From positions 107,572,001 through 107,636,000 of the forward strand of contig NC_058368.1 of the NCBI RefSeq assembly GCF_018350175.1: a stretch of 64,000 bases of DNA. The letters are read 5' to 3'. A program made the translations under genes and the position numbers. Positions 41,471-46,297 of the stretch are shown here, piece after piece. Position 1 is the stretch's first letter, and each line of letters starts with the position of its first letter. The notes under the pieces are model-generated. The model was not told the DNA's origin. It made no database searches and worked only from the letters and a program-made list of their open reading frames with translations. The stretch comes from Felis catus (taxonomy: Eukaryota).

Positions 41471-42893
41471 GGATGTCTATAATATATATGCTTGGCCTAA
41501 CTTAAATACCACACCCCATTGCTTATTTAACAATAAAAATACAGAAAAAAAGATGCCATTATAACCCAAGAAGGTAGGAATGCCTACCTGGCCTCTTGGG
41601 GATACTTTGAGTTAGATAAATAAATAGGCTTAGGCATGGGGACAAGGGGCAGAGGGTTAAAATAAGTACATCTTCAGACCCAGATATTCGGAACGGTATC
41701 ACATACATATCTGGGAACATCTGAAGCGGGAGAAGGTTAAGAAGAGTTATTAGGAGCCTTCCACATGCCAGGGATGCCAAACGAAAGTAGCGTGGAGGTC
41801 TGGAGGGATGGGGTGTTCTGGGGGAGACATCAGTCATTAGTGACAGTTCCAAGTCTTCACAGAAGCACATGGTAGAAAATGGTGCTGGCGGTTCCCCAAA
41901 ATGGCCTTCTAGCACCATAGTCTAAGACTGGGTCTTTGCATCAGTGGAAAATGGAACCACCCTGAAAAACTACATTTTTCTTATCTTTAGGAAAGCACAT
42001 TTGAGCAGGCCACACATGATTTTAGAATTGCTACTTGCCCCTGGATCTCTCTCATTTATTAACTCCCTATCTGTTAATTAAAAATTATTGCAAGATAGAT
42101 AAAAAGTCTCAGTCTACAAGTAGAGATAAAAGACCTAATATGCAAACTCTAGATTCCTTTAATTTAATATATAAAGTGGGGAAAATTACACTGAAATATA
42201 ATCAGTAGATAAATGAATAAACATAAGTGGTTCTATCAAATTCTGTCTCTATGCATCATGTTAGTGAGAGTGAGGAAAATAAGATGATAGTGGGACTCCA
42301 ATAGAAAAAAGAGGCTGTTACCAAGAAAACAAATATTTCAACTTTATTTTCTTGTCCAAGCTTATTCACAGTTTATTTTCAGTTGAGGCAAAGCAGAAGG
42401 AAGTTGCCACAAGTCACATATTTGGACAACTCTGTTGCCTTTGATTTACTGGTTTAGTGTGTTAACAGTGAATCTCATCATTCAAAGGAAACTTTAATCT
42501 CAAAATTCATTTCCTGAGGTATCACTGTATTCAAAAACAACTCTAACTTCCTCTTCACTTTTCCTACAACTTTTCTTAATATCAAATTTCTTGTCACATT
42601 TTGGAGAGTCACATAAGGCGTCATTTCAAATTCAAAGCATTAAACTGTAATAAAATCAGAGTATCCAGTGTTCTCCATAAATGTAAAAGAATGTATATGG
42701 ACCAAGGGATCATGAAAGAAATGTTCATGGGTTTCAATTCAAGTCTTCTTACTAGAGCAAGAATAAAGAAATACAAAATCATTTGGAGAATTTACATCTT
42801 TACAGTTTTGCTAGGATGCTTTCACAGGCTGGAAAGGAAACATGGGATTTTTTTTTTTTTTTGGATATTGTGACTTCCCTCCTGTAACTAGTT

Positions 42894-42973
42894 TCACGCT
42901 GAGTGACATGTTTTCTGTGGGAATGGTCTTCTGCATTGCTCTGCCACCTTTTCCTGTTCCTCTGAAATCATAT
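42894..42973 (-). pseudogene. Exon 4 (up to first stop) of candidate pseudogene; 3' boundary unknown
   Basis: Strong acceptor CTTATTCTCCCTATTTTTCTAG; phase-1 continuation DMISEEQEKVAEQCRRPFPQKTCHSA*. Confidence 0.6.
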
Positions 42974-43321
42974 CTAGAAAAATAGGGAGAATAAGTTTGT
43001 CCTTGGTAAGAAAAATGCTATGGCTACAAAGCAGTGACATTTAAGCAAGGATCTTTAGTTAATAAATAAAAATGTTCACACTATCTCTGTGTTAAAGGAA
43101 GATGGGCAGTGTTATTTTTATTACATTTAGTATATTTTATTTAACATATTTAGTTTCATTAATATATGTTGTGTTTATTCTTTGTAATTTCTGATTTTTC
43201 TATTTATAACAGGTATCTCTGGTATGATCAGAAAAACAATTATAACATAGAATGTTAAAATAGAGAAAATTGAGAAAAATGTAATTTTTTCAATTTTCAA
43301 ATGTCTGCTTGTTTTTCTTTA

Positions 43322-43325
43322 AAGT

Positions 43326-43364
<39 letters not shown>

Positions 43365-43965
43365 TGATAAAAATATATGTATATATTTTTTCAGGAATAG
43401 AATATAGTGATGCATCACTTACATGTAACACCCATGCTCATCCCAATCAGTGTCCTCCTTAGTGCCCCTCACCCCTTCAGCCCTTCCCCTCCAACCAACA
43501 CTCCGCCAGCAACCCTCAGTTTGTTCTCTGTATGTAAGAGTTTCTCATGGTTGTCTCCCTATTTTCATATTATTTTTGTTTCTCTTCCCTTATGTTCATC
43601 TGTTTTGTATTTTCCACAAATGAGTGAAATCATATGATATTTGTCTTTCTCCGACTGACTTACTTAGTGTAATACAGTCTAGCTCCATCCACGTTGTTGC
43701 AAATGGCAAGATTCCATTCTTTTTCATTGCCGAGTAATATTCCATTGAATATATATACCACATCTTCTTTGTCCATTCATCAGTTGATGGACATTTGGGC
43801 TCCTTCCATAATTTGGCTATTGTCGATAGTGCTCTGTAAACATTGGGGTTCGTGTGCCTCTTTGAATCAGCATTTTTGTATCCTTTGGATAAATACCTAG
43901 TTGTGCAATTGCTACATCATAGAGTGGTTCTATTTTTAATTTTTTTGAGGAACCTCCACACTGTA
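43322..43965 (-). mobile_element. Carnivore L1 3' end in intron 3 of the candidate pseudogene
   Basis: (TTTA)n tail, 3'UTR and ORF2 C-terminal motifs; same type as 3187-3621. Confidence 0.88.
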
Positions 43966-44258
43966 ATTATATGTCTGTAAGAATCTAAACCAGAAACATC
44001 ACTCAAACTAATTCTTAAGGAATAAAGTCACAGTACCTAACTGGCCTTGTTCATGGCTCTTCTTAAGTTGCTTTCTGGAAGTTTCTTAATGGGTTCCAAA
44101 AGAAAAACGAGGAGATTTTAAGGGTCATAAGGTAGTTTTCTAAGTTTTAAATAGCTAACCTTTATTTTCCACCAAACAAATTAAAAATGATACACCTGTG
44201 ACTTGGTAATAAACTAAGGAAACTGTCACTGAACTCCACAGACGGACCTGAATTTGCT

Positions 44259-44383
44259 TATCTATTTATTTATCTATTTATCTATTTATCTATTTATCTA
44301 TTTATTTATCTATTTATCTATTTATTTATCTATTTATTTATCTATTTATTTATCTATCTATCTATCTATTTATTTATTTATTT
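44259..44383. repeat. (TATT/TATC)n microsatellite derived from the U7 retrocopy poly(A) tail
   Basis: Lies between the TSD and the U7 3' end. Confidence 0.9.
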
Positions 44384-44387
44384 ATGG

Positions 44388-44449
44388 AGGGGGTCTTCTG
44401 GTAAAGACCGGAAAACCTGCTAGATAAATTCTAAAAGAGCTGTAACACT
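44388..44449 (-). pseudogene. RNU7: U7 snRNA processed pseudogene (retrocopy)
   Basis: Minus strand AGTGTTACAGCTCTTTTAGAATTTATCTAGCAGGTTTTCCGGTCTTTACCAGAAGACCCCCT matches mammalian U7; A-rich tail 44259-44383; TSD TGAATTTGCT at 44249-44258 and 44450-44459. Confidence 0.93.
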
Positions 44450-44749
44450 TGAATTTGCTCTTTTAAAATGTATGTACATATGTTGCTGTTTCCCAAGGTG
44501 TTGCTGCCAGGCATTAACATTACTAAGAACTATTAAAATGCTGACTTAGCATTCTTTGTAAAACATTTCTTATGTGACCAGAGTGGAACACTCTGAACCA
44601 TACCATAATGTTTAACAAATAGCCAACAGATCATACAGTGTAAATGAAATCGTGACTAGTAATGCCTGAATGTTTTTGAATGTGATAATTTTTGAAAATT
44701 CTAGAGGCCTTCTGTACCTGATATATTCCATATTGTGTTTCTTTTCTGA

Positions 44750-44945
44750 ATTTTTTAATTTTTAAAAAATTTTTATTTTAGAGATAGAGTGCAAGCAGGG
44801 GAGAGGGGACAGAGAGAGAATCTTAAGCAGGCTCCACAGTCAGCTCCACACAGAGTCCAACATGGGGTTAAATACAACAACCACAAGATCTTGACCTGAG
44901 CTCAAATCAAGAGTCACTTAAACAACTGAGCAACCCAGGTGCCCC
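44750..44945 (-). mobile_element. CanSINE in intron 3 of the candidate pseudogene
   Basis: Full-length, diverged. Confidence 0.88.
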
Positions 44946-45295
44946 TGGGTTTCTTTTTCTAAAATTTGCTTTGCTTATCAGTATTTATAATTTAAGATAT
45001 ATTTCACTTTCCATGGGGAAAAAAATCTATAATACTTCCTTTCTAAAAGTTCAATGTACTTATATAAAGTAGAAATTCTTAAAATAGATTAATTTACCTT
45101 ATTTAAGGTTATTGAAATGTCAGAGTTGTGTATAATTTTTCTTAACTAAGACTAATGTGCAGGGTAAATACAAAAAATACACAAGTTAATTTAAGCCTCA
45201 TACTTTAAACTTCAAAGCAGTTGTCAACCAATATTTCACCTTTCAAGTAAACTAAAGTCATATTTTAGCATCCTTATAAAAAAGAAATATCTTAC

Positions 45296-45419
45296 CTTAG
45301 AATTTCTTCACATCCATATCCATAGAATAGTTTTTATAGTGATTTCCAGAATATTGGTGAAACTTTTCTAAATATTTTAAAGATTCTCTTCTAATGGAAA
45401 AAGTTTCAATCCACTTTAT
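45296..45419 (-). pseudogene. Exon 3 of candidate pseudogene (124 nt)
   Basis: Acceptor CTTTATTTTTTAG, donor AAG|GTAAGA; 40 open codons IKWIETF...DVKKF, then TAA at 45299-45297. Confidence 0.72.
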
Positions 45420-45502
45420 CTAAAAAATAAAGTTTATAATTTTAATGTTTTTATTAATGCAAGAAGTTTAAGGGAATAGTTTGTAATTTTTAGGAATCTT
45501 AC

Positions 45503-45620
45503 CTTAAATATATTTAAAGCACAGGAAAAACAACTGGAATTGGTACATTGCATTTTTTCCCTCTTTTTAAACAATCAACCAGTCAGCTTTTTAAAATTAT
45601 TATTATTAATGCAACTAGCT
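45503..45620 (-). pseudogene. Exon 2 of candidate pseudogene (118 nt)
   Basis: Acceptor TTTGATGTTTTAG, donor AAG|GTAAGA; encodes ASCINNNNFKKLTG*LFKKREKMQCTNSSCFSCALNIFK; TGA at 45577-45575. Confidence 0.7.
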
Positions 45621-45702
45621 CTAAAACATCAAACCTTGTTTATGGTTTTGTATAAACTTTAGGCAGGCTTATTAAAGAAAGTTAATAAAATAGTACACTT
45701 AC

Positions 45703-45806
45703 CTTATTTGGTGGTTATTATGAACTGTCCAAAAGAAGTTAAATGTCAATAGGAAAAATAGGTTTTTTTAAGTCTTCCTGAATATCTTGATGACTAAAGA
45801 GTGCAT
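45703..45806 (-). pseudogene. Exon 1 (coding part) of candidate pseudogene, signal-peptide-like
   Basis: ATG at 45806-45804; hydrophobic LFFLLTFNFFW; TAA at codon 13 (45770-45768); donor AAG|GTAAGT. Confidence 0.65.
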
Positions 45807-46297
45807 TTAGCAAAATGGTGGACACTCAAGCAGCCAAATGTCAAACTGCTGATGAGACTTGAATTCCACATTACAATATAAAACCAGATACAAATGGATT
45901 TTTCACTCCTGGGCTGGCCACCTCATTCCTTTGAATCAAAAAAGTGTGCTTGAGAATGGGAAATAGCTTGCTACATGATTAGCACAGAAGATCATTTATT
46001 TGAAATCTAGAGTGTTTCAGGATAGGGCAAAAGGCACAATTTTTGAAGGATGTGTTCACAATGTTAATTTAGATCTGTATTCATTTGTGAAACCATTCAG
46101 AATGTTTCTGGCCATACCTTCTACTAACATTAATCAGTGACTGCCACAGTTGTTTTAATAAAAATTGAGAAAATGGGTGATGAATTCCTGATAATTTGCA
46201 GTTAATTTATTCTGCAACTGCATTTTGTTGGATGAGCGGGGAGTTCCTAAGGGGTTACCTGGTATCTGCCTGACTTTAAAAAAATTAAGCACAAGTA

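Follow-up and report, generated by a model that had tools for sequence, protein, structure and literature searches.

On its minus strand, the window analysed here (the whole 64,000-nt stretch; contig C1, positions 107572001-107636000) holds the remnant of a four-exon gene. Our favoured reading, to which we give a probability of roughly 0.45, is that it is a unitary pseudogene of an unassigned, probably secreted helical protein, a disulfide-bonded ligand of ~105 amino acids (aa). The locus has introns and is disabled by a stop at codon 13, a probably frameshifted stretch in exon 2 and a stop at codon 115. It has no intact paralogue in the genome (2.43 Gb in 71 contigs, the scope of our searches there), where at least two places match exons 1-3, namely the locus and an 88-nt retro-copied piece, and at least one matches exon 4 and the untranslated region (UTR). 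The gene fossil is apparently undescribed, and its reconstruction is now better than the earlier one. In the proposed course of events, a hydrophobic leader would have taken an ancestral precursor of ~141 aa into the secretory pathway. The protein released from it, ~105 aa long, mostly alpha-helical and bearing Cys, would most likely have been an extracellular ligand. The best specific guess for its fold would be a helical-cytokine-like one, but it can be placed in no known cytokine family. The present locus could make no full protein, and any transcript from it would be non-coding.

Structure of the four-exon remnant

The initial annotation gave intron phases of 2, 0 and 1, and these are borne out on the sequence: all introns are GT-AG, and the reading frames join across the exon borders without a frameshift (Table 1). 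The closing C-x8-C and the mature region of ~105 aa that it described are likewise both present in the reconstructed product of 141 codons. Exon 1 encodes a basic N-terminus followed by a 13-residue hydrophobic stretch, either a signal peptide or a signal anchor. Exon 4 is the least certain exon, having been picked among several nearby acceptors, with further strong ones at 43086, 43001, 42828 and downstream. Starting from an upstream ATG with every intron in phase 0 puts 7-8 stops into exon 2, and this reading was rejected for that reason.

Table 1. Features of the four-exon locus, in positions of the window
Feature	Position	Strand	Description
TATA-like hexamer	45875..45880	-	~70 nt 5' of the ATG; identified by consensus match alone
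Exon 1, coding part from ATG	45703..45806	-	104 nt; donor AG|GTAAGT, phase 2
TAA at codon 13	45768-45770	-	in-frame stop in exon 1
Intron 1	45621..45702	-	82 nt, GT-AG
Exon 2	45503..45620	-	118 nt; donor phase 0; putative helix A, extended loop and start of next helix
Probably frameshifted stretch	45526..45586	-	bounded by two compensating 4-nt indels relative to retro-copy L002; contains the TGA
TGA at codon 50	45575-45577	-	in-frame stop in exon 2
Intron 2	45420..45502	-	83 nt, GT-AG
Exon 3	45296..45419	-	124 nt; open for 40 codons; donor phase 1
TAA at codon 115	45297-45299	-	in-frame stop in exon 3
Intron 3	42974..45295	-	2322 nt, GT-AG; microsatellites at 43325-43365 and 44258-44385
Exon 4, coding part	42894..42973	-	80 nt including TGA; end of last helix, C-x8-C
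Two AATAAA signals	42343..42377	-	~520-550 nt past the stop; putative 3' end

Splice sites were ranked with a matrix built on general consensus frequencies. On this scale the three donors rank 2, 7 and 7 among 3065 minus-strand GT sites, and the acceptors are moderate (ranks 729, 448 and 97 of 4431). The heptamer AGGTAAG occurs seven times on both strands together, and three of these occurrences fall within 410 nt on one strand (P about 0.0007). Exons 1-3 contain three stops, whereas shuffled sequences average 9.5 (P=0.026 for the best of three frames), and stop depletion strengthens to P=0.006 with the exon-2 frame of the retro-copy described below.

These exons may instead belong to a different or larger gene, encoding a type II membrane or intracellular protein, in which exon 1 would be internal or exon 4 not the last; we consider this unlikely. 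Basic residues ahead of the hydrophobic stretch would suit a signal anchor as well, an AG lies 13 nt past the ATG, the other acceptors near exon 4 are strong, and the phases match no cytokine gene that we read. However, that internal AG scores ~0 bits as an acceptor (rank 1383 of 4431), and the TATA-like hexamer upstream and the two AATAAA signals downstream frame a compact gene. A word-indexed protein search with exon 2, covering lengths of 73-2000 aa, also returned no candidate, a weak negative because about half of the query is probably out of frame.

Several other elements were seen around the locus. The top-scoring internal-exon candidate of the window lies at 41588-41799 on the minus strand, 1.1 kb further along than exon 4, with two acceptors (41799 and 41720) and a donor at 41587; it could be a chance feature or an alternative exon on the downstream side. 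In 45880-45965 (minus strand), which precedes the TATA-like hexamer, TTTCC motifs and others that look AP-1-like and TCF-like were picked out by eye. Intron 3 contains pieces that are presumably LINE- and SINE-like. Among the 24 runs listed, 20 contain part of the stretch and 5 are recorded as RNA (shares 0.13-0.38), which gave no expression evidence.

A probable older frame of exon 2 and the search for relatives

A retro-copy of 88 nt of exon 2, L002, lies on a different chromosome (contig C18, 146327950-146328037). It differs from exon 2 by six substitutions in 77 nt (7.8%, 95% interval 2.9-17%) and by two 4-nt indels of opposite sign, one near 45586-45579 and the other at the T run 45530-45526. 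The exon-2 part of the copy translates without a stop. Exon 2 has four possible indel states, of which that of the copy alone is stop-free. Because L002 reads open with two compensating indels, the TGA in exon 2 and ~21 codons of the earlier peptide are probably a frameshift artefact. A comparably open stretch arises by chance in 23% of shuffles, so it is likely rather than certain that the L002 state is the older one. Should this older frame be correct, the shifted frame would account for the TGA and for two of the three exon-2 cysteines that lie close together; a C-T-x3-C likeness to IL-9 and TSLP falls in this same probably frameshifted stretch.

All six substitutions between the locus and L002 change residues in the open frame, and there is therefore no sign of purifying selection. 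Taking 1.5-2 substitutions per billion site-years per lineage as the neutral rate in carnivores, L002 would have originated roughly 7-55 million years ago, with exon 2 still open at that time. The match of the copy to exon 2 stops at the donor, and the next 5 nt are those that begin exon 3; the copy aligns with a score of 132 to a spliced template and 125 to the genomic one. We do not take this as proof of splicing: no target-site duplication was found where we looked for one around L002, and the copy is suggestive only. In the surrounding sequence (C18:146327500-146328050, positions 1050-1600 of L002), a LINE-like 3' end, which we take to be a LINE-1 3' tail, is followed by an A run, the 88 nt of exon 2 and a second A run, a layout with the shape of a 3' transduction or a template switch. 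The corresponding site at the present locus has no LINE and only a TTTT/AAAAA target-like motif.

Relatives of the gene were sought in several libraries. Pfam returned no family for queries from the locus (four queries, then three), and none of 56 candidates was confirmed in a word-indexed protein search with the exon 1 and exon 3 frame over lengths of 93-298 aa. The ESM Atlas gave no match to exon 3, and among PDB sequences exon 3 found nothing below E=0.7 and the L002 peptide found nothing. In metagenome and viral contigs, 0/263 and 0/16 pattern matches were confirmed, and a DNA pattern matched nowhere. The two large protein searches used the exon-2 frame as it stands. Two apparent hits were discarded: the single match among 1.84 billion representatives was a tandem-repeat sequence, an artefact of an X-rich query, and caspase-7 (PDB sequences, E=0.046) aligned in two separate pieces, one of them within the shifted stretch.

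As a control, a 41-aa TSLP exon recovered 58/58 candidates from mammals, with identities as low as 56%; its 98% identity to the cheetah protein marks the genome as that of a felid. Had an orthologue of 93-298 aa been annotated, with ordinary carnivore identity in exon 1 or exon 3, it would thus probably have appeared. Since the control works while the locus gives no homologue, in other species too the gene has escaped annotation, diverged strongly or died. Within the same genome, searches for IL5, GM-CSF, IL15, IL4, TSLP and IL7, and for Flt3 ligand, SCF, CSF-1 and IL34, never listed the locus; these were loose first looks, and the negative is correspondingly weak.

The absence of a protein relative from any library, in spite of a working control, is also what a spliced long non-coding RNA would give, one that never coded and whose frame and helices arose by chance. 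Near-perfect donors in a gene whose frame has stops would fit such an RNA, as would substitutions relative to L002 that are all non-synonymous. We nevertheless regard it as distinctly unlikely, given the stop depletion (P=0.006-0.026), the open frame of an independent older copy of exon 2, and a helical periodicity that improves in that older frame.

Helical character and likeness to cytokines

The initial annotation had divided the mature region into four amphipathic segments and read them as a short-chain four-helix cytokine. We scored the segments against shuffles, with seven real cytokines as the comparison range. All four are present as written, but only segments C (P=0.024) and D (P=0.048) beat the shuffles, while A (P=0.18) and B (P=0.46) fail. 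The probably frameshifted stretch of exon 2 takes in the end of segment A, the loop and the beginning of segment B. The combined four-segment score has P=0.041 as is and P=0.0055 in the older exon-2 frame; the latter lies within the range of the real cytokines (P 0-0.06), and of 275 decoys, stop-poor translations drawn from the window, 2.5% score higher. Helix A has a hydrophobic moment of 0.80 in the older frame, and segment B is weak (0.39-0.42). A pattern of this kind fits any helical protein.

Single-sequence AlphaFold predicted one long helix for exon 3 alone (pLDDT 79) and, at low confidence, a helix-loop-helix for exon 2 in its probably shifted frame (pLDDT 63); Foldseek returned no matches to the latter model. 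The leader is atypical, basic with a long N-region and interrupted by the stop at codon 13 within the reconstructed frame, and its hydrophobic window reaches 1.85, compared with 2.0-2.8 in six cytokine leaders of the same genome.

For direct comparison we used a panel of 12 sequences, 11 cytokine proteins assembled from the same genome and one fetched TSLP. After correction no member matches (family-wise P 0.27 and 0.36). Apart from IL3 and the IL3-like protein, true paralogue pairs reach z of only -0.6 to 4.1; because they mostly fail as well, the alignment tests neither support nor exclude kinship. The proposed helix-D F-L echo survives as a motif, VKKF-x-D being identical in IL5 and F-L recurring in IL15 and IL4, but not as a local match (P=0.32). 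In the older frame, VPxP is followed by C-x3-IF, as in the loop and helix B of IL5, and helix A ends in L-x-D-x-L and is followed by Y-x-V-x-V, as in FLT3LG; none of these likenesses is significant. Two further matches were set aside. A global match to CSF2 (z 3.3-4.5) was an end-to-end overlap of unrelated parts, and a TSLP profile (47/58 proteins) placed the as-is query at shuffle level (28%), scored the reversed query higher and was null for its IL7 control.

The cytokine identity thus stays a lead. The decayed small gene, the hydrophobic leader and the helical, Cys-bearing product are supported, whereas cytokine gene structure fails and no match remains after correction. A four-helix cytokine, whether unassigned or from a known family, is a tentative reading that we hold to be on the unlikely side. 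By analogy with earlier cases, the locus may represent an undescribed helical cytokine with an exon layout of its own, dead in cats and intact but unannotated in some other mammals or amniotes, a proposition that we regard as doubtful.

A true paralogue of IL-3/IL-5/CSF2/KK34 or of CSF1/KITLG/FLT3LG seems to us improbable, more so than a non-coding RNA. The locus shares a chromosome arm with CSF2 and IL5, the IL5-like and FLT3LG-like motifs would fit, and KITLG comes out on top of the panel under each of the four alignment settings (z 2.2-3.0; P 0.01-0.04 when taken alone). Yet neither family-wise value is significant, global alignment to IL5 gives P=0.62, FLT3LG is matched equally well by a reversed query (P=0.015), and BLASTP of exon 3 against KITLG exon 4 gives no alignment. 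A three-sequence CSF1/KITLG/FLT3LG profile gives P=0.31, but the profile is poorly aligned and its FLT3LG-KITLG control is not significant either. Set beside the ectodomain stretches taken from FLT3LG and KITLG, the product is also ~30-45 residues shorter, and the gene has no short phase-0 AB-loop exon. Finally, splice-like motifs arranged by chance in AT-rich DNA are a very improbable source of the whole structure: the region was chosen post hoc from a 64-kb window and its acceptors are moderate, but donor clustering and stop depletion together speak against it.

Genomic setting and comparison with known systems

On contig C1, family searches placed the end of a CHGN-family gene at 107.309 Mb, a spliced HIT-family gene at 108.036 Mb, CSF2 at 108.82 Mb and IL5 at 109.27 Mb. 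From human synteny, we take the first two to be CHSY3 and HINT1. The four-exon locus lies ~305 kb from the former and ~420 kb from the latter, with CSF2 1.2 Mb and IL5 1.65 Mb away. It sits in the CHSY3-HINT1 interval, beyond HINT1 and outside the extended TH2 locus. In the dog and cattle gene lists (PMC9897549, PMC7655849), the gene order is consistent with the CHSY3/HINT1 reading; between these two genes the cattle list has no protein-coding gene, and the dog list has two unplaced LOC entries within the wider interval. The literature covered, which left out most subscription journals, describes no gene in this interval. A human colorectal-cancer association has reportedly been mapped between CHSY3 and HINT1 (PMC4741898), which gives the interval some wider interest.

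The locus supplies exact exon borders, the synteny anchors CHSY3 and HINT1 and a corrected exon-2 frame. With these, a lookup in whole-genome alignments can show whether there is a lost secreted ligand at all; should an open frame survive in no species, the locus would be a gene fossil of the ordinary, old kind or else a non-coding RNA.

Gene structure gave the firm test of family membership. We read the internal introns of ten cytokine genes in the same genome, leaving out IL2, IL9 and IL21. In every one the introns within the bundle are in phase 0, and a loop exon of 33-63 nt is present in each except IL7 (81 nt); the four-exon locus has neither feature. The coding exons read were 144/33/129 in IL5, 159/42/126 in CSF2, 153/33/138 in the KK34-like gene, 159/36/93/36 in IL3, 111/54/144 in FLT3LG, 114/63/171/160 in KITLG, 63/171 in CSF1, 135/48/126 in IL4, 45/138 in IL15 and 81/132 in IL7. 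On this ground the locus belongs neither with the IL-2/IL-4/IL-5 nor with the CSF1/KITLG/FLT3LG families.

It is rare for a new vertebrate cytokine to come to light, and the recent ones have been genes that were missed before, whole in some mammals but disrupted in others. IL-15L is reportedly such a case, a cytokine overlooked by annotation that is intact in some mammals and pseudogenised in others. The report of a KK34-type gene (PMC4690019) describes the same combination for a cytokine directly downstream of IL-3 and GM-CSF, distinct from the four-exon locus. We observed an intact four-exon gene for a cytokine-like protein of 150 aa just downstream of CSF2 (C1:108827238 to about 108828890, plus strand; z ~4 against CSF2), which is probably KK34, the name following from the position given in that report (PMC4690019). 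An intact five-exon, phase-0 IL3-like paralogue of 160 aa also lies head to head with IL3, 6 kb upstream of it (C1:108803535 to about 108801960, minus strand; z 13-16 against IL3).

Among known systems, the IL-2/IL-4/IL-15/IL-7/TSLP group resembles the locus product in size and in the helix-D F-x motif; it differs in the phase-0 introns inside the bundle of IL4, IL15 and IL7, and neither such bundle introns nor a short AB-loop exon is found at the locus. CSF1, KITLG and FLT3LG share with it an N-terminal Cys, a Cys before the next helix, a C-terminal Cys pair and, in the older frame, a Y-x-V-x-V strand after helix A, with KITLG as the top, non-significant panel match. They carry a transmembrane tail, phase-0 loop exons of 54-63 nt, a B-C exon of 144-171 nt and a phase-1 intron following helix D, whereas the locus product is shorter and tailless, and introns interrupt its predicted helices, including a phase-1 intron inside the last. 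The IL-3/IL-5/CSF2/KK34 group resembles the locus in lying 1.2-1.65 Mb off on the same chromosome, in four coding exons with short introns, in a precursor of 134-160 aa (141 at the locus) with a leader and helical body, and, for IL5, in the helix-D motif. In that group, however, helix A is in exon 1, the second exon has 33-42 nt and the introns are phase 0, while the locus has exons of 104/118/124/80 nt with phases 2, 0 and 1, no significant alignment and few AU-rich elements (one ATTTA in the 3' UTR, against six in CSF2 and three in IL5). The KK34-type gene itself has the phase-0 cytokine exon layout and adjoins CSF2, and the four-exon locus does neither.
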